17,292 bases of DNA from Chthonomonadales bacterium (GCA_038217285.1 JBBQPO010000122.1:1-17292), one strand, 5' to 3'. Positions 2,294 through 17,027 are shown, counted from the first letter of the stretch. Numbers and translations: made by a program. Notes: a model not told the origin generated them from the letters alone.

Positions 2294-4468
2294 ATGAACG
2301 TCGGAAGACCAGGGCTGGTGGCTATTATATTGGCGATGCTATGCCTGCCCGGTATGGCCGTGTTCGCGGGCTTTGCACAAGGTTCGCGAGAAGCGGTGAC
2401 GCCGCCCGTGCGGTTTCGCGAACATCTGATCGACCACTTGCCGGGCGCATATCAGTGTTCGGTCGCGGATATGAACGGTGACGGCAAGCCCGACATCCTC
2501 GCGCTCTCCAGCGACAAGAGCGAGATCGCCTGGTACGAGAACCCGACCTGGAAAAAGCATCTTGTCACGACTTCGACGCACGGCAACATCGACATCGCTG
2601 CTTACGACCTGGATGGCGACGGAAAGATGGAGTTGGCCGTCGCCAGCGAGTTCGATCTCGGCAACACGCAGACAGGCGGACGCCTCCAGTGGTTCAAGCC
2701 GGGAGCGGATGTGACGGCTGAGTGGACAGGGCATGACTTCGCGATGCTGCCGACGACCCATCGCCTGCGGTGGGCCGACTGGGACGGCGACGGCAAGAAG
2801 GAGCTGGTCGTCGTTCCTATTCTCGGTCCCGGCGCGATCGCTCCCACCTACATTGCGCCGCTCTCCATCGTCAGCTACGCCTTTGCAAAAGGGGAGGCGC
2901 ACGCCAGAGTGGTAGATCGCTCCCTTACCGTGGCGCATGGCATGCGGATCCTGGATTTCGACGGCGGTGGGCGCGACGATCTGCTCGTGGCGAGTTTTGA
3001 AGGTGTGACGCTCTTCAAGCCGATGGGAAAGGGCAGTGCGCGCACATGGCAGAAGACTCCCCTGGCGGCGGGAGAACAGTCCATGCCTCCCAAACGGGGC
3101 AGCAGTGAGGTGGATCGCGGCTGGCTCAAACCGACTGTGGGAAGCAAGAAGAGACGGCCATTCCTCGCCACCATCGAGCCGTGGCATGGCAACGAGGTCG
3201 TGGTCTATACGCCCCCTGCCGACGGTAAAGGGCTGTGGAAGCGGCAGGTCATCGACGCTACTCTGGAAGACGGACATGCGCTTGTCTGCGCGGATCTGGA
3301 CGGCGACGGACAGAGCGAAATTCTGGCGAGCTATCGCGGTCGCGGGCACAACCTGTACTGCTATCGCTGCCTCAACGCGGACGGCACGCAGTGGGAACGC
3401 TCGGTTATCGATGCAGGCGGCATGGCCGGGGCCGGAATGGTCGCCGCCGATCTGAACGGGGATGGACGCATCGACCTTATCTGCACCGGCGCCGCCACCG
3501 CAAACGTCAAGTGGTACGAAAACCTCGGCTCTACGCAGTCACCGCGCGACAAAGTGAACCCTATCGCCTTTATGCAGCCTCCGATGGGCGCGAAAGCTTT
3601 CTCGGTAGATCGCATCGAAGGGCAGGCAGTGCTTGCGCGGCCTGCCCGAAAATGGTTCAACCCGACGCCGGGACTGCGCATCGCTCTTTTCGATGAGAAA
3701 CACGCGCCGGTCTCCACCGTCGTTTCCGGAGAGAGCGGGCAGTTTCAGTTCGGAGATGTCGCCCCCGGCGCCTACACGTTGGTCGTCGAGTCGGAGACGT
3801 TGCACCTTCTGAGTATCCCGCTTCGGGTCGGAACGAGAACATCGCAAGGCGCGCCCGCAGAGCCTGCGCTGCTGTTGGTTCTGCGCTCGAAGACCGATAG
3901 GAGAAAGAGTGTCGCAACTCCGATCGCCAAAAAGGCGCTGCGCGCCGAGTTGCTGGAGAGGGTTGAAAAGGATCAGGCTATTCGCCACGAACTGATCCAG
4001 CAGGGAATGGACCATCCTGACAAAGAGATCCAGACGCGCATGGCCGCCATCGACGCGCAGAACCTGGCGCGGATCAAAGAGATCGTCCGTCAACACGGAT
4101 GGCCGGGGCCTGCACTCGTCGGGATAGATGGCACAGAAGCCGCCTTCCTGCTGGTTCAGCACAGTCCCCACGAGTTCCAGAAGGAGATGCTGCCACCTAT
4201 TCGGGGCGCGTATCGATCCGGCAAGTTAGATGGGCAGAGTTACGCCCTGTTGCTGGATCGTGTGTTGGTAGGGGACGGCCAGCCTCAAGTCTATGGAACG
4301 CAGACGCTGCCATTTGCTAAGTGGAAGGACAAGGAACCTGCTCTCTTTCCCATCGGGGAGGCGACGCATGTGGATCAGCGTCGCGCGCAGCTCGGGTTGC
4401 CCCCACTGGCGGAGTATGTGAAAATGTTGAAAAAAGCCTATTTCCCACCGGGAAAGGACAGGCCCTAG
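2294..4468 (+). CDS. Secreted multidomain protein: FG-GAP/VCBS beta-propeller (aldos-2-ulose dehydratase-like) + carboxypeptidase-regulatory-like beta-sandwich + DUF6624
   Basis: GAGGA SD and signal peptide. Six DxxGxGxx(D/E)-type repeats and IEPWHGN. Middle domain SGESGQFQFGDVAPGAYTL. DUF6624 motifs LRAELL..DQAIR, HGWPG...VG..G..AAFLLVQH, LLDRV....PQVYGTQ, VDQRRAQLGLPPL. Confidence 0.85.
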   Translation: MNVGRPGLVAIILAMLCLPGMAVFAGFAQGSREAVTPPVRFREHLIDHLPGAYQCSVADMNGDGKPDILALSSDKSEIAWYENPTWKKHLVTTSTHGNIDIAAYDLDGDGKMELAVASEFDLGNTQTGGRLQWFKPGADVTAEWTGHDFAMLPTTHRLRWADWDGDGKKELVVVPILGPGAIAPTYIAPLSIVSYAFAKGEAHARVVDRSLTVAHGMRILDFDGGGRDDLLVASFEGVTLFKPMGKGSARTWQKTPLAAGEQSMPPKRGSSEVDRGWLKPTVGSKKRRPFLATIEPWHGNEVVVYTPPADGKGLWKRQVIDATLEDGHALVCADLDGDGQSEILASYRGRGHNLYCYRCLNADGTQWERSVIDAGGMAGAGMVAADLNGDGRIDLICTGAATANVKWYENLGSTQSPRDKVNPIAFMQPPMGAKAFSVDRIEGQAVLARPARKWFNPTPGLRIALFDEKHAPVSTVVSGESGQFQFGDVAPGAYTLVVESETLHLLSIPLRVGTRTSQGAPAEPALLLVLRSKTDRRKSVATPIAKKALRAELLERVEKDQAIRHELIQQGMDHPDKEIQTRMAAIDAQNLARIKEIVRQHGWPGPALVGIDGTEAAFLLVQHSPHEFQKEMLPPIRGAYRSGKLDGQSYALLLDRVLVGDGQPQVYGTQTLPFAKWKDKEPALFPIGEATHVDQRRAQLGLPPLAEYVKMLKKAYFPPGKDRP

Positions 4469-4548: not shown

Positions 4549-5544
4549 TTATGCCTTCCTCTCCTGCCCAGTGCGGCGGCGACCTCCCTCTTTCCAGAAC
4601 GTAGGATTGCCCCATCGCTCCGTGATGGGGCCCGGCGCGTGGCCAGCGCGGATCCGCTCGAACTCGGAAGGGCTTTCGATGACTTGGTGCCGCCGTTTTG
4701 CGCTTCGAATCAACACATCGGCCTCCGGTGGATAGCAGGCGATCGGTGCCGACGGCTCGTGGGGAAGCTCCTCCGGCAGCCGCGTTATGGGCGCGTTCGT
4801 CGGCAGGCCGGCCGACTGATAACGCAGATCCATCGACCAGCGGATCTCCTCGCTGACGTTCGGTGTGCTGCAGTGGGGCGTGAGGTTCGTCAAGAGCAGG
4901 ACCCCGCCGCGGCGTACAGGCACGGTGACGACCTCACCGGGAGGAAGATCGCTCTGGGCGATCTCGAGGTAGTGGTGTGGCCCGAAGCCGTGCGGCGCGA
5001 CAGCGCCCCGGTGGCCGAAGCGAAGTGCCTGAAGGCATCCGTTCCGTTCATCGGCATCCACGAGCGGTACCCAGCAGGTGAGTATCAGAGCCTGGTCGCA
5101 GTACGGCTCGAAATACCCCGAATCCTGGTGCCACGGCACCACGCCAGGGCCATAATTCGGAAGCTTGGGGCGCAGTCGGTAGACGCTGGAGGCGATCATC
5201 TCTGGGCCGCAGAGAGACTCGGCCACGTCCAGAAGAGGCTCGCATCGAATCATCTCGAAGATGGCAGGGATCGCCAGCGCGCCGTCCGTAATCTCCTTGA
5301 TGACTCGGGGTGTCTTCGCCGTGATCTTCGTAAGCCGGGTCGTGAAGGGCTCGTCGGCATACGTTGACGACAGCTCGCCGGTGCGCACCAGATCGTTCGC
5401 AATTCGGTCGATCTGATCGGTGATGCCCTGCTCCATACCGGCGAGTATCGACTCCGGTATCAGATCCTCGACCACCAGAAATCCCTCGGCGTGAAACTGC
5501 GCGATCTGTTCGGACGAAAGTCCGCGTTGACGTGTGGTTGGCAT
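4549..5544 (-). CDS. Phytanoyl-CoA dioxygenase (PhyH) family Fe(II)/2-oxoglutarate dioxygenase
   Basis: LSSEQIAQFHAEGFLV N-terminus, HxD motif VPWHQDSGY, distal His in LTPHCS, RWSMDLRY. GGAGG SD. Confidence 0.9.
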   Translation of the reverse strand: MPTTRQRGLSSEQIAQFHAEGFLVVEDLIPESILAGMEQGITDQIDRIANDLVRTGELSSTYADEPFTTRLTKITAKTPRVIKEITDGALAIPAIFEMIRCEPLLDVAESLCGPEMIASSVYRLRPKLPNYGPGVVPWHQDSGYFEPYCDQALILTCWVPLVDADERNGCLQALRFGHRGAVAPHGFGPHHYLEIAQSDLPPGEVVTVPVRRGGVLLLTNLTPHCSTPNVSEEIRWSMDLRYQSAGLPTNAPITRLPEELPHEPSAPIACYPPEADVLIRSAKRRHQVIESPSEFERIRAGHAPGPITERWGNPTFWKEGGRRRTGQERKA

Positions 5545-5616: not shown

Positions 5617-7632
5617 CTATTCCAGAATGAAGTCTTCGAGTTGCATAGAGGGAAGTCCTGCCAGATTGATGACCTCAAATCCAAGTTTATAGGCTCCCTT
5701 GCCGATCAGGCCCCATCCCATTCTGAGATCGGTCGGGGCATCGAGGTGGAGCGAGGCCTTCCCGGTCCAATCGGCCACATCACCGTCGGCTTTGAGGCGT
5801 GTGTAGGTGGGCCGAATAGAATCGCCGGCGAGGATCGGCATCTGCAGCGGTCCCTGCTTCGTCTGGGCGAAGGCATAGAGCAGTTGGCCGCTGGGCGCAG
5901 CTCCGGCCGCCGTCACCAGGAAGGTGAACTGAACCGCGGTCCATTGGTCGGAACCGGCGCGTTTGATCTGGCCGGGAACATAGGCCAGATAGCTCTCCCC
6001 CTTCGGGTCGAGGGCTTCGAAAGAGGTGATCGGGCAGGTGACCCCCTCCTTCTGATTGGTGAGCATGAACCAGGTGCCCTTGAACCGATGGGCGAGGGTG
6101 CCGTCCGGCAATATGAACGTGGGAAAGCGCCCCAGAATCAGAAGATCGGGGCCATCGTGCGCCAGCATCAGAAAATGGACTTTGTCGATGTCGCCATCCG
6201 TGCATTTCGAGAAGATCTCGATGGGTTTTTCCAGGGATGCCGTCCTTCCTGTCGCCTTCAGCGGAAACAGTTTGGGCTTGTCGGCGTAGTCGTTGACGGC
6301 GACGGAGTAGAGGCTCAGAAAGTTGATCCAGCGGCAGTCTTTGGAGAAGGTACGGGAGAGATAGTCACGCCCCTTCTCCTCGTCCAGCCGAATGCCCTCG
6401 ATGGGGAAGAAGATAGAGATTCCACCGGCGTGGGGAGTGCTGCCTCCAAGCATAAAGTAGGTGACGGCATGGCGAATCGCGTCATCGACCTGCAGAGCGG
6501 CCTCACGCAACGCAGGATCGTCCGATTTTTCGAGCGTCTGCGCGAGATGCATCAGATCGTGCATCTCCTCTTCACCGCCCTCTCCGCGCACTCCGACTTC
6601 GCCGAACTCCTCGGAGACCGCGCGCGGACGCGCCACCTTGATCCAGCCTGCGCGCCCCTTATGCAGCGAGGCGGCGCATCGGTCTCCCAGCGTGGAGACG
6701 GCCGCCTGCAGTGGCGCAAACTGGTCGAGGTTCAGCATCGAGAGCGTGGTGCCTACGGCTTCGGATCGGGCCATCGGATCTTTCGACTCACGAAAGTGAA
6801 TCGTATAGGCGTCTATAATGGCGCGGCCCAGGTCGTACCCGTTCATCGTGGGCTTCTGCACCAGCGCCTTCGACAGCTCATCGTAGTTCCAGCCGCGTCC
6901 CGGCGCCAGCTCTTCCGACGCGACCATGATATGCGTCACAGGCGCGAGCGCTTGCGCTGTCTCGAAGCTTGCCATCAGGCAGGCATCCAGGCCGATCAGG
7001 TCCAGTTTGCCATGCGTCGTCACGAACGGCTCCAGGCCCGCCCGCAGATCGCGCAGACTCATCGTCTTGTCTCCGCTCGACTCATCCACGCAGAGCGCCG
7101 CCCACCCGGAGCCGTGATCCGCGATGATGAGGCCATAGTGGTGGGCCGGAAAAGCCTGGGCCGACGCCGCCAGGAACTTCCGCAGCGTACTGGGATCGGA
7201 CATATCGGTCGCGCCCCAGTCCGCCAGGGATTTCAGTTTGCCTTTCTCGACATGCAGCAGTTTGGCGCCGGACCAGTTCGGCAGCCCGCCGATGGCAACA
7301 TCGGTGTAGCGGTCCTTCGGCTCACTTTTCGCGCTGCGATCGCACAGCATCACGATCTGGACATTCTCGCTGCTTCCCACGTGCAGCATCTCCACGACAT
7401 TGGCCATCTCCGGGGTTTCCAGGGAGTTGTCCGCATCCATATAGACCATCAACGTCCAGTCGGATATGATGGTGGTCTGCCGTGACGCGCCTCTACCGGC
7501 CGCCGGAACAACCGCCGCTGTGATCAGAAGCAGTATCGCCAACGGCAGGCCTGAGAAAGCAGCCAGGCAATGCCGAAGCAGAGCGCTGGTGTGCAGGCGA
7601 ACATTACACCCGTGACTGGAGAGGAGAGGCAT
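5617..7632 (-). CDS. Clostripain-family (peptidase C11) cysteine protease with N-terminal signal/anchor and C-terminal extension
   Basis: WTLMVYMDADNSLE, catalytic His in IIADHGSGW, catalytic Cys in LDLIGLDACLMASFE, VASEE. AAGGAG SD before the ATG at 7632. Confidence 0.9.
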   Translation of the reverse strand: MPLLSSHGCNVRLHTSALLRHCLAAFSGLPLAILLLITAAVVPAAGRGASRQTTIISDWTLMVYMDADNSLETPEMANVVEMLHVGSSENVQIVMLCDRSAKSEPKDRYTDVAIGGLPNWSGAKLLHVEKGKLKSLADWGATDMSDPSTLRKFLAASAQAFPAHHYGLIIADHGSGWAALCVDESSGDKTMSLRDLRAGLEPFVTTHGKLDLIGLDACLMASFETAQALAPVTHIMVASEELAPGRGWNYDELSKALVQKPTMNGYDLGRAIIDAYTIHFRESKDPMARSEAVGTTLSMLNLDQFAPLQAAVSTLGDRCAASLHKGRAGWIKVARPRAVSEEFGEVGVRGEGGEEEMHDLMHLAQTLEKSDDPALREAALQVDDAIRHAVTYFMLGGSTPHAGGISIFFPIEGIRLDEEKGRDYLSRTFSKDCRWINFLSLYSVAVNDYADKPKLFPLKATGRTASLEKPIEIFSKCTDGDIDKVHFLMLAHDGPDLLILGRFPTFILPDGTLAHRFKGTWFMLTNQKEGVTCPITSFEALDPKGESYLAYVPGQIKRAGSDQWTAVQFTFLVTAAGAAPSGQLLYAFAQTKQGPLQMPILAGDSIRPTYTRLKADGDVADWTGKASLHLDAPTDLRMGWGLIGKGAYKLGFEVINLAGLPSMQLEDFILE

Positions 7633-7798
7633 GGGAAGCTCCTTTCGACACCCGATCAAAAAGCGTACGATTCTACGCTCGTTTGCATCAGTGTACCCAA
7701 TTCCGCTGTGAGCGCGTCTTCAACAGAGGCGACAAGGGCAGCTTTCGAGATGACACCGGAGGCTTAGAAGCCAGGAGGCACCGGCCCCTGACCGGCAG

Positions 7799-7847
7799 AA
7801 AATAGAAAAAGAAGCTCCCTTTCGGTTATGTCGAAAGGGAGCTTCTT
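7799..7847 (-). terminator. Rho-independent terminator ending the molybdoenzyme operon
   Basis: Perfect 16-bp stem AAGAAGCTCCCTTTCG (7809-7824) / CGAAAGGGAGCTTCTT (7832-7847), followed on the minus strand by a U-rich tract. Confidence 0.85.
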
Positions 7848-7901
7848 CGCGGCGTATCTTCTTGTCTGGTAGGCGCGACCGGTGATTAGCCGACGCCAAA
7901 G

Positions 7902-8558
7902 CTAGAACGTGCCATAGAAAGCGGTGTTCTGGTCGTTTTTGGTCCAGGTGACGCCGAGGGTCTTGTCCTGGATACCGCTCTCTTTCGTGTAACCGACGCG
8001 GCGGTCTTTGATTTCGATCAGTGGCTTGTACCAGACCATATTGGGCTGTTTGCAGCATTCGTGGTTCGGCATAGCTTCGACAGAAAGCAAGGTAATGCCT
8101 TTGGCTTCCACACGATAGTTCTCGCCGGTGTGCGCGAAGGAGATGGGAGTGCGCTTGATCGCGACGATCATTCCGAACGCCCTACCGTAACGGGCTTTGA
8201 GCGCCGCCGAGAGCGCCTCGAACTGCGCAGGCGTGGCCTTCGCATCGATGTAAAGCGTGGAGCGGCGGGCCGCAGTCTCATCCTGGAGATTGGCGTCGCT
8301 CACGATAGAGGCCAGGGCGGAGAGGCCGGAGAGCGAGGTACCCTTCCAGGCGCCGTCACGGATATGCCAGGCCATCTCGGCCTCGCGGCCGGTCGTCGTC
8401 AGTTCGCCATTATAGTGACAGGCGCCAGCGAAGACGCTCGCGGTGCGGGCTTCCAGATAGTCGCCAGTCAGAGTTTGCTTCTCAGGCTTGGCGACCGTTT
8501 GAGCGTTCGCTGCCGTAACGGAAAGCGTCAGGGCCAGCGTGAGCAGTAGATTTTGCAT
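7902..8558 (-). CDS. Secreted DUF1326-like protein (putative metal-binding)
   Basis: Sec signal ending AANA. GDYLEARTASVFAGACHYNGE and AWHIRDGAWKGTSLSGL resemble the DUF1326 N-terminus; second Cys cluster NHECC. Start abuts the upstream stop codon. Confidence 0.7.
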   Translation of the reverse strand: MQNLLLTLALTLSVTAANAQTVAKPEKQTLTGDYLEARTASVFAGACHYNGELTTTGREAEMAWHIRDGAWKGTSLSGLSALASIVSDANLQDETAARRSTLYIDAKATPAQFEALSAALKARYGRAFGMIVAIKRTPISFAHTGENYRVEAKGITLLSVEAMPNHECCKQPNMVWYKPLIEIKDRRVGYTKESGIQDKTLGVTWTKNDQNTAFYGTF

Positions 8559-8834
8559 TTAAGAGGCTCCTTCGTCGAAGAGTGACCGGTAGCACCCGCG
8601 ACTCGCGTTGCAGTCTTCCGGGCGGACCAGCTCGCCGTCCGGTCCAAACGCCTGGACGGTGCGCTGGCACCAGCAGTGATTGCTGGCATCGCGCAGGTGA
8701 TGGATTTCCGTCGGCATCTCCTGCAGGAAATAGTATTTCTTGCTGCGGATTTCGCGGCAAAACGGGCTGTTTACCGGCGGCGCGACGGTCGCTTCCGCCG
8801 CCGTCCCGAGGATCGTTGCTTTCTCCACTATCAT
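8559..8834 (-). CDS. Small Cys-rich hypothetical protein (91 aa, 5 Cys)
   Basis: GGAGG SD. Fills the gap between operon genes, with its TAA directly adjacent to the next ATG. Pattern C..IRSK...HCWC..T...FGPDG......C...RGCY. Confidence 0.8.
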   Translation of the reverse strand: MIVEKATILGTAAEATVAPPVNSPFCREIRSKKYYFLQEMPTEIHHLRDASNHCWCQRTVQAFGPDGELVRPEDCNASRGCYRSLFDEGAS

Positions 8835-8880
8835 ATTATCCCTCCGGAATCGGGTATTTGCAAGTTCGATTTACGTGGAA

Positions 8881-9876
8881 TCAGGCGTTCGCCTGATGAA
8901 TCGCACGGCGAACGAGCGTTTTGGTAAGCGGGACTTTGTAGGCGTTTTGCCCCAGCGGCATTGCTCCGGCCAGAGCGATTTCGGCGACGGCATGAAGCGT
9001 CTCCGGGCTGAGCGTCTTGCCTTTGAGGGCGGCTTCCGCTTTGGGAACGCGCCAGGGAATGGGCGCGACCCCGCCCAGAACGATTCTCGCCTCCACGACT
9101 TTACCGCCCAAGGTGTGCAGCGCGACCGCCGCCGCCGCCATCGCCCAGTCCATCGAGGTTTTCTCCCGGAATTTGAGATAGACGCTGTGGGCTGCCATCG
9201 GGGAAGCGGGTACCGTAATGCCGGTGACGATCTCGTCCGGCTTGAGAATGTTCTCATGGCGCACATTGACGCGCGGCAGAATGAAGAACTTCTCGATGGG
9301 CACCATGCGCGAACCTTTCGGCCCGAAGATGGTAACGGTCGCGCCGAGCGCCGTCAAGGCCGTCGCGGTGTCGGAGGGATGCACGATATAAGAGGGTCCG
9401 CCTCCCAGAATGGCGTTGTATTTGTTCTCGCCGGACACCGCATAGCAGCGATCCCCTCCCTTTTTGAGGCACTGGATATGCTCGTTGCGATAGTACCAGC
9501 AGCGCGGGCGCTGACAGAGGTTGCCCCCCATCGTGCCGACATGCCGAATCTGGGGCGAGGCCACACTGCCAGCCGCCTGCGCCAGGGCGGGGAAGTGCTG
9601 TTGCACCTCCGCACTCTCCGCTACCTCCGCCACCGTTACCAGCGCGCCGATCTGCAGGCCAGTGCGGGGATCGTAGCTCAATCGGTTCAGGCCAGGAATA
9701 TACTTGAGGTTGACGACAGCGTCCGGCTCGACCAGACGATCCTTCATCTCTGTGAGAAGGTCTTGCCCGCCCGCCATCAGGCGCAGACGCCGGTTGTCGA
9801 TGTCTCTGGCATCCAGCAGCGCGATCGCCTGCGGCAGAGTCTTGGGGTTATGGAGATCGAACGATTTCATGCTCAT
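8881..9876 (-). CDS. Xanthine dehydrogenase family FAD-binding subunit (PaoB/YagS-like, with Fe-S insertion)
   Basis: MAGGQDLL, ASPQIRHVGTMGGNL, Cys-rich insertion CQRPRCWYYR...C...C, HPSD, LGGVAPIPWR, NAYKV. AAGGAG SD before the ATG at 9876. Confidence 0.95.
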   Translation of the reverse strand: MSMKSFDLHNPKTLPQAIALLDARDIDNRRLRLMAGGQDLLTEMKDRLVEPDAVVNLKYIPGLNRLSYDPRTGLQIGALVTVAEVAESAEVQQHFPALAQAAGSVASPQIRHVGTMGGNLCQRPRCWYYRNEHIQCLKKGGDRCYAVSGENKYNAILGGGPSYIVHPSDTATALTALGATVTIFGPKGSRMVPIEKFFILPRVNVRHENILKPDEIVTGITVPASPMAAHSVYLKFREKTSMDWAMAAAAVALHTLGGKVVEARIVLGGVAPIPWRVPKAEAALKGKTLSPETLHAVAEIALAGAMPLGQNAYKVPLTKTLVRRAIHQANA

Positions 9877-9889
9877 AAGAGGACTCCTT

Positions 9890-12136
9890 TCAGGCTTTCT
9901 TCTGTTTCGACAGACCGTCGAGGATCTTGTCCGGGGTGATGGGCAGCGAGGTGACCCGAACCCCGCAGGCGTTATAGACCGCATTGGCGATGGCGCTCGC
10001 GCCGGGAATCGCCGCAGGCTCCGCCATGCCGATCACCACGTTGCGTGTGTCGCCATCGTCGATGATCGACACCATCTCCGGAATCTCCAGGCAGCCGGGA
10101 ATTTTATACTCATCCATCGCGGTGTTGAGCATGTTTCCTGTGTGCGAATCGACCCAGTGCTGTTCGAGAAGCGCGTAGCCCAGGCCCTGGATCATGCCGC
10201 CATTGAGCTGACTCTGAACGCCGCGTCGGTTCATAGGCAGGCCGCAGTCCTGCACGCCGACCATCTTGAGGACGCGTACCTGACCGGTCTCGATATCGAC
10301 CTCGACTTCGGCAAACTGAGCGCCGTGGACGCCGCCTCCCGACAGTCCCTGTTTCCACTCGCCCCGCGCCGCAATTCCGGCCATGCCGAGGGTCGCACAG
10401 GCCTGTTTCCAGGTGAGCGTCTTTTCGGGCGCGGTGGAGGCGTAGATCTTGCCGTCGCGTGCGATCAGGTCTTCGGGTTTGCCGCCCAGCATGGGAGCGA
10501 CTTTCTCGAAGAACTGGATCCGGGCGTTGTAAGCGGCGTCTTTCACTGCCGGTGCGAGAGAGGCGGTCGTGGTGCTTCCTCCCGAGGCGTTCGCCTGGCC
10601 GTAGTTGCTGCGGCCGATGCGCGTCTCGACGGCGCTGAGCGGCAGCCCGAACTCCTCGGCGACGATAGCGCCCGTGTAGGTGCGGGAGCCGGTGCCCAGA
10701 TCCTGCGTTCCGACCTGCACGGCGATAGCGCCATCCGGTTGGATGAAGACATCGACCTGGCACGACGGCCCGCCTCCTCCGCCCCAAGTCGCGCAGCCGC
10801 AGCCCATGCCGCGCTTGAGCGACTTGTACGGACCATACGCCACGCCCGCTCCTGGAACGGCCGGACGCTGCTCCCACTTGATCTCCTGCGCCCCCCGGTC
10901 CAACTGGCGATGATAGGCGACATCCGTCGTATTCTTCTTCCGGAATTCGATGGGGTCCATGCCGATCTTGGCGGCCAGATCGTCCATCAGGGCCTCCATG
11001 GCGAAGGAGGGCTGTGGGTGGCCCGGCCCGCGCATGGCGCGGGAGGCGTCCTGATGCGTATGCACGGCATCGACTTCCCGGTAGATCACCTCGACATTAT
11101 AGATATAGGGCAGGCCCGCAAGGCCGCCTTCTCCGAGCCCGCCTAACTGGTGCTGTTCGGCGATCAACGCGACCAGCTTACCATCCTTCGTAGCGCCGGC
11201 TTTCACTTTTTGCCAGGAGCCGTTGCGGTTGCCGGAGGCGAGAAACTCCTGCGGTCGGGTCAGCATCAGCTTGACCGGGGCCTTCGCCTTCTTGCTCAGT
11301 TCGCAGGCGATGCTCCCCGGCAGATCGAGGCCGAATTTGCTTCCGAAGCCACCGCCCATATACTCGACCACGGCCGTTACACTCTTTTGTGGCAGGCCCA
11401 GCGCGGCGGCGGCCTCGCCGGGAATGCTGAACGTGCCCTGCGTCGAGGCGTAGACTGTCGCGGAGTCTCCGCCGTTGTAGTCTACGGTGACGCCGTGGGT
11501 TTCCAGGCAGGTATGGTGCTGCATGGTGGTAACGAACACGTGCTCGACGACCGCATCGCACTTAAGAAGCGCCGCCTCTGCCGCCGCTCGGTCTCCACGC
11601 TTTTCACCGGGGCGGATGTTGCCGTTCTCCTTTTGATAGACCTTGGGTGCGCCCGGTTTGATCGCCTGCTCATAGGTCACCACATGATCGAGCTTGCTGT
11701 ATTTGACTTTGATCGCCCGCAGTGCGTCTTCGGCGATCTCCGGGGAGGTCGCGGCGACCGCAGCGACCGGATCGCCCTCATAACGGAGCTTTTTGGTTCC
11801 GTAACTGATGACGGTCTTAACGCCCTCCATCTTCTCCGCCGCGCCGGTATCGATGCTGATAACCTCGGCGCTGGCATAAGGAGAGGTGAGGATACGGCCG
11901 TACAACATGCCAACCGGGCGAACATCGTAGGTATATTTGGCAGCACCGGTCACCTTCGCAGCGCCGTCCACGCGCCGAAGGTCATGGTTGAGCAGGGTGT
12001 GCCCGTCGCGCGGCCCCCACATCGGGCCAGCGGTATCGTCCACCTCAATCTCGACAAGGGTATCGACGCCGTTGACGACTTTGGGAACTTTGATTTTCTT
12101 CTTTTTCGGGGGATTCTGATTCTGCGGCTCGGCCAT
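9890..12136 (-). CDS. Xanthine dehydrogenase family molybdopterin-binding subunit (PaoC/YagR-like)
   Basis: RVDGAAKVTGAAKY, QHHTCLETH, GGGFGSK, MRGPGHPQ, SGGST, AEVEVDIETG, catalytic Glu in GMAEP. Confidence 0.95.
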   Translation of the reverse strand: MAEPQNQNPPKKKKIKVPKVVNGVDTLVEIEVDDTAGPMWGPRDGHTLLNHDLRRVDGAAKVTGAAKYTYDVRPVGMLYGRILTSPYASAEVISIDTGAAEKMEGVKTVISYGTKKLRYEGDPVAAVAATSPEIAEDALRAIKVKYSKLDHVVTYEQAIKPGAPKVYQKENGNIRPGEKRGDRAAAEAALLKCDAVVEHVFVTTMQHHTCLETHGVTVDYNGGDSATVYASTQGTFSIPGEAAAALGLPQKSVTAVVEYMGGGFGSKFGLDLPGSIACELSKKAKAPVKLMLTRPQEFLASGNRNGSWQKVKAGATKDGKLVALIAEQHQLGGLGEGGLAGLPYIYNVEVIYREVDAVHTHQDASRAMRGPGHPQPSFAMEALMDDLAAKIGMDPIEFRKKNTTDVAYHRQLDRGAQEIKWEQRPAVPGAGVAYGPYKSLKRGMGCGCATWGGGGGPSCQVDVFIQPDGAIAVQVGTQDLGTGSRTYTGAIVAEEFGLPLSAVETRIGRSNYGQANASGGSTTTASLAPAVKDAAYNARIQFFEKVAPMLGGKPEDLIARDGKIYASTAPEKTLTWKQACATLGMAGIAARGEWKQGLSGGGVHGAQFAEVEVDIETGQVRVLKMVGVQDCGLPMNRRGVQSQLNGGMIQGLGYALLEQHWVDSHTGNMLNTAMDEYKIPGCLEIPEMVSIIDDGDTRNVVIGMAEPAAIPGASAIANAVYNACGVRVTSLPITPDKILDGLSKQKKA

Positions 12137-12139
12137 GAT

Positions 12140-12814
12140 CTATGCTCCTCCGCGCATTTTTTGCGCTGCTTCGGCGACCGCTTCAAAGATATGGGGATAG
12201 GTGCCGCAGCGACAGAGATTGCCGGCACAGCCCTTCTGAATCTCCTCGTGAGTCGGGTTGGGGTTGGACTTGAGGAGCGCGGTCGCCGACAGGACGAAGC
12301 CGGGCGTACAGAACCCGCACATCATCGCGTCCCGATGGACGAACGCCTCCTGAACCGGGCTGAGCTCGCCGTTTGCTCCCGACAACCCTTCGATCGTCTG
12401 GATCTGTTTGCCGACCGTATCGACGGCCAACTGCATACAGCCATAGACGGTTTTGCCGTCCAAAAACACGGTGCATCCGCCGCACGCGCCCTGATCGCAG
12501 ATGAGTTTCGGGCCGGTGACAGGCGGATCGGCATGGTTGCGCAGGGCGTTGAGCAGGGTGGTGCGCGGCTCGATCTGCATGGTCATGGCCGTTCCGTTTA
12601 CCTGGAGGGTAACCGCCTGCAAGCCTTTGTGCAGCGTGGTTCCGGCAGGCGGCTCCGCCAGAGGCAGCGGTTCGGCTGCACTAACGTCCGGTGCCAGCAG
12701 ATCTGTGACCAGCGCCGAGCCTGCGCCGACAGCGCCGACGCCGCGCAAAAATTGTCGCCGACTCAATCCGCTCGCCCGGCTGCTCTCGTCGTCTGTCTCA
12801 TGTCTTTTCGGCAT
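12140..12814 (-). CDS. Xanthine dehydrogenase family 2x[2Fe-2S] subunit with Tat signal (PaoA/YagT-like)
   Basis: Twin-arginine motif LSRRQFL plus hydrophobic stretch. Cluster motifs CDQGACGGC...C and CGFC...CRC. AAGGGAG SD. Confidence 0.95.
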   Translation of the reverse strand: MPKRHETDDESSRASGLSRRQFLRGVGAVGAGSALVTDLLAPDVSAAEPLPLAEPPAGTTLHKGLQAVTLQVNGTAMTMQIEPRTTLLNALRNHADPPVTGPKLICDQGACGGCTVFLDGKTVYGCMQLAVDTVGKQIQTIEGLSGANGELSPVQEAFVHRDAMMCGFCTPGFVLSATALLKSNPNPTHEEIQKGCAGNLCRCGTYPHIFEAVAEAAQKMRGGA

Positions 12815-13083: not shown

Positions 13084-15863
<2,780 letters not shown>

Positions 15864-15992: not shown

Positions 15993-17027
15993 CTATTCGT
16001 TCTCCATTGTCCTTTGCTCTCCCTGGAGCGCGTTTCGCACACTCTCGCTTCGGGCAGTGTCGATAGGAGTGCGCCCATTCTTATCTGTTGATCGAGGATT
16101 CGCTCCTCTGCTTAGGAGCAGGCGAACCATGGGCTCCTGCCCGCAGTTCACGGCGCGGCGCAGCGGCGTCTCCCCGTCCTTGTCCTTCGCCTCGATGTCT
16201 GCACCGGCATCGAGAAGCGCCTCCGCGATTCTGGTCGTTCCTCGTCTTGCGGTCATATGGAGCGGGGTCATGCCGCCGACGCCAGTGACCTGATTCACGT
16301 TCGCTCCATGCTTCAAAAGCAGTTCGATGGCAGCGCGCCCCTCCTCATCCTCGCAGCCTTCACTATTCGCGGCCCGGTAGAGGGGGTTGTGCCCGCCAGC
16401 ATCTTTTGCATCGACATCCGCTCCAAACTCAAGCAGCAGACGCATACGAGGAACGTCCCATCGCATCGCTGCGGCGCAGATCAGGTTCCTGCCGTGATCA
16501 TTGGCGACAGCGAGCGCGGGATCTGCCTCCAGCTCACGGCGCAGGTCCGCAAGCGGCAGACCATACAACGCAACGAAAGGATCGGAGAGGGTTGCGGCGA
16601 GATCGGTCAGATTCGTCAGCAGTCGTTTCCTGGTCTCCTCGCCTACTCCCTCTGCTTCCATCGAGGCGGAGATATGCTCAAGCCAGTGTTCCGCCTCGGT
16701 CGTTCCGATGGCGAGATGCGCATGCCTGCAGAACAGACTGGTTTTGCCTCGCGCGGCGGAGTAGTCGGGAGGCCCTCCGGTCCGCTCCGCGAGATAGAGC
16801 GCAAGCCGCTCTTCCAGGGCCGTCATGTTCTTCGGGAAGAAGCCTCTCAGCGCCGGGTCTTCTTCAACTTTGAGATGGAAGTGTTGGGAGATTCGTCTGA
16901 AAGCCTCGATTTCGCCGACGGCCTCATACATGCCTGTAAGCGCCTTGTCGTAAAACTTGTTCGACGTTTTGGGGTTCGCTAAGTCCCGTGCCGTATGGCT
17001 CACTTCTTTTCTGCTTGGGCCTGCCAT
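15993..17027 (-). CDS. Group II truncated (2/2) hemoglobin domain fused to ankyrin repeats
   Basis: Globin motifs YEAVG, DPALRGFF, LAERTGGPPDYS..RG, RH (F8 His), HWL (G8 Trp). About 4.5 ankyrin repeats (GHNPLYRAA, GMTPLHMTA, GETPLRRAV, GRTP). AGGAG SD. Confidence 0.85.
   Translation of the reverse strand: MAGPSRKEVSHTARDLANPKTSNKFYDKALTGMYEAVGEIEAFRRISQHFHLKVEEDPALRGFFPKNMTALEERLALYLAERTGGPPDYSAARGKTSLFCRHAHLAIGTTEAEHWLEHISASMEAEGVGEETRKRLLTNLTDLAATLSDPFVALYGLPLADLRRELEADPALAVANDHGRNLICAAAMRWDVPRMRLLLEFGADVDAKDAGGHNPLYRAANSEGCEDEEGRAAIELLLKHGANVNQVTGVGGMTPLHMTARRGTTRIAEALLDAGADIEAKDKDGETPLRRAVNCGQEPMVRLLLSRGANPRSTDKNGRTPIDTARSESVRNALQGEQRTMENE

Follow-up and report, generated by a model that had tools for sequence, protein, structure and literature searches.

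What are two small genes doing at the end of an operon that codes for an exported molybdenum enzyme? The question is raised by a stretch of DNA of 17,292 nucleotides from a Chthonomonadales bacterium (GCA_038217285.1, JBBQPO010000122.1:1-17292; hereafter the window, meaning this whole stretch). On its minus strand are found five co-oriented and packed genes, separated by gaps of 3, 13, 46 and 0 nucleotides as calculated from the open reading frame (ORF) coordinates. The first three encode the iron-sulfur (FeS), molybdenum (Mo) and flavin adenine dinucleotide (FAD) subunits of an enzyme, the fourth a 91-aa protein with five cysteines (C26, C54, C56, C75 and C81) that we refer to as C5, and the fifth a DUF1326-type protein. 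The original prediction, made from the sequence of the window, had described this gene order, the gaps, a signal for twin-arginine translocation (Tat) on the FeS subunit and a strong terminator at the end, and all the details that could be checked are correct. It had also proposed that the two last genes are dedicated partners of the enzyme. Our analysis indicates that the locus represents a known type of enzyme in a variant that is real and widely distributed, with one new protein family, C5.

C5 is closely linked to the FAD gene. A scan of species-representative genomes provided 90 relatives of C5, and 80 loci were kept, belonging to Armatimonadota, Acidobacteriota (mainly Pyrinomonadaceae and Blastocatellia) and Planctomycetota, in which the FAD neighbours were called by tblastn at 1e-5. 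The FAD gene was located directly upstream of C5, and on the same strand, in 77 of these loci. The others are L005 and L007, where C5 has no FAD gene upstream, and L016, which has no upstream sequence to judge by. As a check for bias towards close relatives, a profile built from 25 distant C5 members was run on 201 Planctomycetota genomes, and exactly one C5 match was detected in 58 of them. The Mo and FAD genes were directly upstream in all 30 of the distant loci that were fetched. When compared by hand, 57 of the 58 matches were located just downstream of a FAD gene scoring 212-508 bits (the limit of 212 bits, like that of 200 bits used below for DUF1326, was set after the gaps in the scores had been seen), 56 of them within 400 bp and one at a distance of ~850 bp. 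The 58th was found at the edge of a contig, with the corresponding FAD gene at the edge of another contig. C5 was single-copy in every positive genome, including 25 of 151 Armatimonadota and 43 of 201 Acidobacteriota (if the unpublished genomes G381 and G406 are left out, 41 of 199).

A further case is a metagenome-assembled genome of Chthonomonas calidirosea, in which a FAD gene and C5 stand alone beside a divergent gene for a FAD-linked oxidase (L013:5092-6397); no Mo subunit was found in this assembly of 2.6 Mb, which may be incomplete. Besides, the five proteins gave highly correlated distance matrices over 44 loci (r 0.79-0.93), and the partial correlations of C5, given without a significance test, were 0.42 with FAD, 0.28 with DUF1326, 0.24 with FeS and -0.28 with Mo. 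The adjacency of the two genes, the lone FAD-C5 pair and the fact that the largest partial correlation of C5 is the one with FAD all point to a pairing of C5 with the FAD subunit. The idea that C5 is a dedicated partner of a xanthine dehydrogenase (XDH) family enzyme has thus been borne out, C5 being almost never found unlinked, and we conclude that a large clade has it as a dedicated, near-obligate fourth gene.

The gene order itself is also kept. FeS-Mo-FAD-C5 holds in the 80 loci wherever the flank reaches, and the order FeS-Mo-FAD-C5(-DUF1326) is shown across Armatimonadota, Acidobacteriota and Planctomycetota. A cultured carrier is Engelhardtia mirabilis Pla133, the complete genome of which contains locus L057. 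The clustering of all ORFs of the 80 loci revealed no conserved neighbour beyond the five genes, the other large clusters being antisense shadow ORFs. We give hardly any credence to the explanation that C5 and DUF1326 are just neighbours with no functional tie to the enzyme. In its favour, many Armatimonadota have DUF1326 away from the cassette, among neighbours that vary. But this order across three phyla, the correlated distance matrices of the five proteins and the lack of any other conserved neighbour speak against it, and for C5 it is contradicted by the synteny counts. In the window (Table 1), the stop codon of C5 (TAA) directly abuts the ATG of the DUF1326-type gene, and strong Shine-Dalgarno sequences precede both. 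The start of the FAD gene was set at an internal ATG, since the longest ORF there would overlap the Mo gene.

Table 1. The five genes of the operon and its terminator (positions counted from the first nucleotide of the window).
Feature	Position	Strand	Details
FeS subunit with Tat signal	12140-12814	-	224 aa; Pfam Fer2_2, Fer2_3, Fer2, TAT_signal
Mo subunit, xanthine oxidase family	9890-12136	-	748 aa; Pfam Ald_Xan_dh_C, MoCoBD_1, MoCoBD_2
FAD subunit with 4-Cys insert	8881-9876	-	331 aa; Pfam FAD_binding_5, CO_deh_flav_C
C5, no Pfam family	8559-8834	-	91 aa
DUF1326-type protein, N-terminal signal-like helix	7902-8558	-	218 aa; Pfam PF07040
Intrinsic terminator-like hairpin, operon end	7808-7848	-	17-bp stem with 8 G-C pairs, 7-nt loop, T-rich tail

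C5 has no match in Pfam or NCBIfam, and the same result was obtained for 16 small members of its family scanned at E<=0.1. A word-indexed search returned 48 relatives, all of them named 'hypothetical protein' and several coming from Chthonomonadaceae or Armatimonadota, and the search of a protein atlas gave only unnamed clusters of 'hypothetical protein'. A profile search over 1.84 billion cluster representatives gave 463 matches at E<=1e-3, of which 72 reached E<=1e-10, almost all of them 55-120 aa in length, and tblastn against a plasmid collection gave no match. The core of the family can be written as C-x2-[LF]R-x-K...WC-x2-T-x4-GPD...C-x3-R-x-C. Nine residues are invariant among 49 diverse members (C26, K32, W55, C56, G64, P65, C75, R79 and C81), which include four of the five cysteines, C54 being the exception. 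The AlphaFold2 (AF2) model built from the alignment of these 49 members is mostly coil and has a mean predicted local distance difference test (pLDDT) of 87.9. Foldseek found nothing in PDB at E<=10 with this model, and the best match of a wide VIA search was 2y8n_B with a Z of only 2.0. PDB sequence searches with C5, and also with the DUF1326-type protein, gave no match at E<=10. Considering the nine invariant residues, the strong Shine-Dalgarno sequence and the pLDDT of the model, C5 is, as far as the prediction can tell, a real, folded protein. By its sequence it is a family of its own, undescribed by Pfam and NCBIfam, and there is no name by which to search the literature.

As judged by its domains, the enzyme encoded by the first three genes is a three-subunit member of the xanthine oxidase family (FeS, Mo and FAD). 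The FeS subunit matches Fer2_2 at 1.6e-29, together with Fer2 and Fer2_3, i.e., it has the two [2Fe-2S] domains, and the Mo subunit has the three domains of the large subunit of this family, a hammerhead domain and two that bind Moco, while the FAD subunit matches FAD_binding_5 at 5.3e-42 and CO_deh_flav_C at 1.1e-18. The Tat signal at the N-terminus of this FeS subunit (motif SRRQFLR, residues 18-24) was recognised by Pfam (TAT_signal, 23.9 bits vs. a cut-off of 22.7) and by NCBIfam (TAT_signal_seq, TIGR01409, 19.2 vs. 16.7), and it is the only one of the trimer, no signal-like N-terminus being seen by eye in the Mo subunit, the FAD subunit or C5. Among solved structures, the best matches of the Mo subunit were 1rm6_A (1e-66) and 5g5g_C (3.4e-64), 5Y6Q also matching (6.1e-57), and in the alignment its Glu706 falls on the Glu in the segment GVGE of PaoC, which we take to be the catalytic Glu of that protein. 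The best matches of the FAD subunit were 5y6q_B (5.9e-55) and 5g5g_B (9.6e-37), with the cysteine loop aligned in both. Specifically, C121, C126, C136 and C144 are located where PaoB-type subunits have their [4Fe-4S] loop and are invariant or nearly so across 38 orthologues, making this loop a candidate [4Fe-4S] site by alignment.

When the trimer was compared with the NCBIfam equivalog models every score was far below the cut-off (149.7 vs. 322 for PaoA and 307.8 vs. 1180 for PaoC). Because all these cut-offs were missed, the enzyme is, by sequence comparison, PaoABC-like in architecture and location and the orthologue of no named enzyme. The genome has a second enzyme belonging to the xanthine oxidase family, lacking a FAD subunit, on another contig (L086:4502-9493, G000 contig C1), with the FeS part at C1:48675-49136 and the Mo domains in the order MoCoBD_2 and then MoCoBD_1; it adjoins a gene for a molybdopterin oxidoreductase of the bis-molybdopterin guanine dinucleotide (bis-MGD) type.

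Three enzymes of known structure are useful for comparison. The gene order in the E. coli paoABC operon is FeS-FAD-Mo, unlike the FeS-Mo-FAD found here. In PaoABC (PDB 5G5G/5G5H) there are likewise 2Fe-2S, FAD and Mo subunits, the cysteine loop of the FAD subunit and the catalytic-type Glu are aligned, and the Tat signal is also on the FeS subunit only, the other subunits having to hitchhike according to an excerpt of PMC4273604. It is a distant match nevertheless (the phmmer values are those given above for 5g5g), and PaoB has a Leu at the first position of the loop where the FAD subunit described here has four cysteines. Among solved structures, the FAD subunit is closest to the aldehyde oxidase of Methylobacillus (PDB 5Y6Q), which matches the Mo subunit too and for which neither a fourth nor a fifth component is known to us. 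For the Mo subunit the top solved structure was 4-hydroxybenzoyl-CoA reductase (PDB 1RM6), the FAD subunit of which has a [4Fe-4S] loop; the corresponding NCBIfam model (4hydrxCoA_B) was the top match, below its cut-off. That reductase is a cytoplasmic enzyme that acts reductively with ferredoxin. Unlike it, the enzyme encoded here has a Tat signal, and it misses all the equivalog cut-offs.

The original prediction had placed the two extra genes in the place of the chaperone for the molybdenum cofactor (Moco). PaoD is described in an excerpt of PMC3909100 as the product of the last gene of paoABCD, needed for a mature enzyme. There is no paoD-like gene of the XdhC family in the operon, with two extra genes instead of none, and it is right that the window has no XdhC gene. 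However, the search of the genome for xdhC and mocA found both. The sole XdhC match is located on contig C131 and codes for a protein of 457 aa with XdhC_CoxI and XdhC_C, followed immediately by a gene for a MobA/MocA-like NTP transferase (NTP_transf_3). In the same way, XdhC was present away from the cassette in each of five other genomes that carry the cassette, and it was absent from all 80 related loci within flanks of up to 8 kb, where a MocA-like gene was found in one. Since XdhC lies elsewhere in these five genomes and is missing from all 80 loci, a supply of the chaperone in trans appears to be the norm for the clade. That C5 and DUF1326 replace the XdhC-type chaperone is therefore very improbable. 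The absence of XdhC from the window and from the flanks of the related loci would suit such a replacement, but the XdhC and MocA-like genes of contig C131 and of the other cassette genomes argue against it, as does a variant cassette that starts with a MocA-like gene (L135, G266 contig C19, 2412-9545 on the minus strand, with the genes MocA-like, DUF1326, FeS, HAD hydrolase, Mo, FAD, zinc-ribbon protein and C5). Besides, a DUF1326 protein that is exported, as its N-terminus suggests, could not act on the insertion of Moco in the cytoplasm.

The explanation that we consider moderately probable is that of a PaoABC-like enzyme exported by Tat, with a dedicated C5, a DUF1326-type protein as fifth gene and Moco maturation in trans. 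The trimer would be matured in the cytoplasm by the unlinked XdhC/MocA pair and exported through the Tat signal of the FeS subunit, as is the case for PaoABC. C5 would be a protein binding a metal through four cysteines (Cys4) and acting on the FAD subunit, in the role either of a small subunit or of an assembly factor, and as a stoichiometric subunit it would leave the cytoplasm through Tat with the folded complex. The DUF1326-type protein would be exported separately, by Sec, as a periplasmic beta-cone protein working beside the enzyme, its most likely role being to remove the H2O2 formed when the flavin hands electrons to O2.

The position of the DUF1326-type gene is less strict than that of C5. 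In 71 of the 80 loci it comes after C5, and in the loci that lack it the genes after C5 are variable. In L005 and L007 the pair C5-DUF1326 is found alone between TPR genes and groEL, and the Mo-FAD genes of these genomes are on other contigs with no C5 after the FAD gene; C5 and DUF1326 have moved as a pair. When the 151 Armatimonadota genomes were searched, the DUF1326 of the cassette type (>200 bits) was detected in 20. Eighteen genomes had both genes, seven only C5 and two only DUF1326, and in a genome of the same genus both were absent. In the 18 genomes with both, the two genes were adjacent in two; one genome has them separated by 5.5 kb and another by 793 kb, and the remaining 14 have them on different contigs. 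As genomes that are related do not count as independent, the statistical support is smaller than these numbers suggest. As for the claim that DUF1326 is a dedicated partner, the co-occurrence (71 of 80 loci, 18 of 20 genomes) sustains it, but the gene is optional and often unlinked. The DUF1326 type is thus a looser, frequent fifth member and not equivalent to C5.

The DUF1326-type protein was recognised by PF07040 (55.4 bits vs. a cut-off of 25, residues 52-183), and its relatives carry precomputed PF07040 annotations. Its hydrophobic N-terminus ending in ANA is, read by eye, a putative Sec signal. Two loops are conserved over 40 sequences, GACH(Y/F)xGE, containing C47 and H48, and one with the vicinal pair C168-C169. 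The AF2 model has a pLDDT of 88.1, and the five best VIA matches were all beta-cone proteins like acetoacetate decarboxylase, with Z of 8.0-8.8, root-mean-square deviation (rmsd) of 3.8-5.0 Å and 148-156 aligned residues at an identity of only 7-11 %, scores that lie in a range common for unrelated models. The top Foldseek matches belonged to the same beta-cone family, the first of them with borderline values (E 3.9e-4, TM score 0.45). The predicted fold thus resembles, at borderline scores, that of 4ZBO, 5UPB, 3BH2 and MppR (4JM3). A second DUF1326 gene of the genome (L085:6373-7047, G000 contig C40) is of a type with the cluster C-x-C-x3-C-x-C at the N-terminus. No DUF2182 neighbour was recognised for it; it is followed by an ORF of 235 aa with no Pfam match, and a gene for a sigma factor of the extracytoplasmic function (ECF) type is nearby.

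A possible role of the protein concerns H2O2, which PaoABC-type enzymes make. An excerpt of PMC11611005 describes PaoABC as an O2-dependent 'aldehyde oxidase' used in cascades with added catalase. Another excerpt, of PMC12992908, reports that DmdF of Roseobacters, a DUF1326 protein, consumed H2O2 and released O2 when purified, that it is needed for growth on dimethylsulfoniopropionate (DMSP) and that its gene always adjoins one for a DUF2182 membrane protein. As far as that excerpt goes, both proteins belong to PF07040 and are co-encoded with a pathway in which H2O2 is relevant, a likeness of family and description, and they differ in the partner, the DUF2182 membrane protein for DmdF and C5 with a molybdoenzyme here, as well as in the signal-like N-terminus of the protein studied here. 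Since DmdF, the sole tested DUF1326 protein in the literature searched, consumed H2O2, the DUF1326-type protein is possibly a peroxide scavenger, by analogy. We regard as unlikely that it is instead a partner for the delivery of the substrate or the conversion of the product, or an electron acceptor. In its predicted fold it is similar, at borderline scores, to pericyclases and to beta-cone enzymes of the acetoacetate decarboxylase type, proteins that bind small organic molecules, and the Cys/His loops are highly conserved. Moreover, the strongest partial correlation of the DUF1326-type protein was with the substrate-binding Mo subunit (0.60 over the 44 loci) and not with FAD, which counts against the peroxide idea and suits the handling of a substrate or product. 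Against such a small-molecule partner are the fold scores, in the range that the tool calls common for unrelated models, the lack of a recognised cofactor-binding motif, the fact that this partial correlation comes with no significance test, and the sole experiment done in the family, that of DmdF, which points to H2O2 consumption.

Several observations weigh against the reading of a PaoABC-like enzyme with C5 and a DUF1326-type protein as its partners. With regard to the fifth gene, DUF1326 is absent after C5 in seven of the 80 loci despite enough flank (two more end too early), it was found in only five of the 30 Planctomycetota loci, where the flanks were only 1.5 kb long, and in 15 of the 18 Armatimonadota with both genes it is far from C5 or on another contig, with variable neighbours. 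The cassette type lacks the N-terminal cysteine cluster of the other copy of the genome, having one Cys there. The evidence for a peroxidase is one paper on DmdF, a distant member of the family, and the reduction of O2 by the enzyme encoded here is an assumption.

With regard to C5, eight FAD matches of Planctomycetota in the same score range had no C5 match, and C5 was found in none of the six of these loci that were inspected, within ~1.5-2 kb downstream; C5 would thus be dispensable for some close relatives. The Tat motifs are kept in four of four C5-less relatives with checked FeS genes, by which the Tat signal was rejected as a correlate of C5. No alignment column separates the FAD subunits with C5 (68 sequences) from those without it (6), and a feature of the FAD subunit that would predict C5 was rejected in the same comparison. 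In one locus (L112, G170 contig C21) C5 still follows a FAD subunit whose [4Fe-4S]-type loop no longer has its cysteines. The apparent fusions of C5 with FAD (P0091) or with a piece of DUF1326 (P0120), as well as P0329, look like frameshifted or chimeric gene calls and were discarded, stretches of them reading as wrong-frame translation or chimeras. Finally, metal binding by C5 is a guess from its four invariant cysteines, and what ties it to the subunits is evidence from gene linkage, not physical evidence.

The C5-less relatives bear on another explanation, somewhat unlikely in our opinion, in which C5 is a cytoplasmic factor for maturation or Tat proofreading that would retain the FAD or FeS subunit while cofactors are inserted and the trimer is put together, and would then be released and stay behind. 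FdhE and NapD follow a comparable logic for other Tat-exported redox enzymes. C5 is small, rich in cysteine, has no signal peptide and is tightly linked to a Tat-exported enzyme, and the existence of close relatives without it fits an accessory factor more easily than a structural subunit. However, the searches of Pfam and PDB found no similarity of C5 in sequence or fold to the known chaperone families, the Tat motifs of the C5-less relatives indicate that export alone does not demand it, and where the operon is split it travels with the gene of the periplasmic DUF1326 protein. Returning to the PaoABC-like enzyme with a dedicated C5, we consider that C5 is probably, to judge from its sequence, a small Cys4 metal-binding subunit or an assembly factor on the FAD subunit.

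A bolder version, decidedly unlikely as things stand, would make C5 a new class of small Cys4 metal or FeS subunits that dock on the FAD subunit in a large clade of periplasmic enzymes related to xanthine oxidase and set the exit of the electrons, and DUF1326 a new periplasmic peroxidase that removes the H2O2 formed. If true, C5 and DUF1326 would form a self-protecting periplasmic oxidase module common to Acidobacteriota, Planctomycetota and Armatimonadota.

The rest of the window contains genes of several kinds. Divergent from the operon there is a gene for a Fur-family regulator (13084-13536, plus strand), directly followed by one for a catalase-peroxidase of the KatG type (13539-15863, plus strand), and further on a bacterial-like globin fused to ankyrin repeats is encoded (15993-17027, minus strand). 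These genes make up an oxidative-stress cluster beside a possible H2O2-making oxidase; the 80 related loci do not share this arrangement as a conserved feature. On the other side, just downstream of the operon terminator, is the gene for a clostripain-family protein (Peptidase_C11) of 680 aa (5617-7659, minus strand). A FG-GAP repeat protein of 724 aa ending in DUF6624 (2294-4468, plus strand) and a PhyH-family dioxygenase (4549-5544, minus strand) have, so far as we could tell, no connection with the cassette.

For periplasmic enzymes of the PaoABC type, both the physiological electron acceptor and the way in which they are assembled are poorly understood. C5, of which about a fifth to a quarter of the sampled genomes of three phyla have a single copy, is a concrete handle on both, and it defines a new family with a confidently predicted fold that has no match in PDB. 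The DUF1326 family becomes tied here to the context of an oxidase, which fits its single published activity, the consumption of H2O2, and makes that role directly testable.

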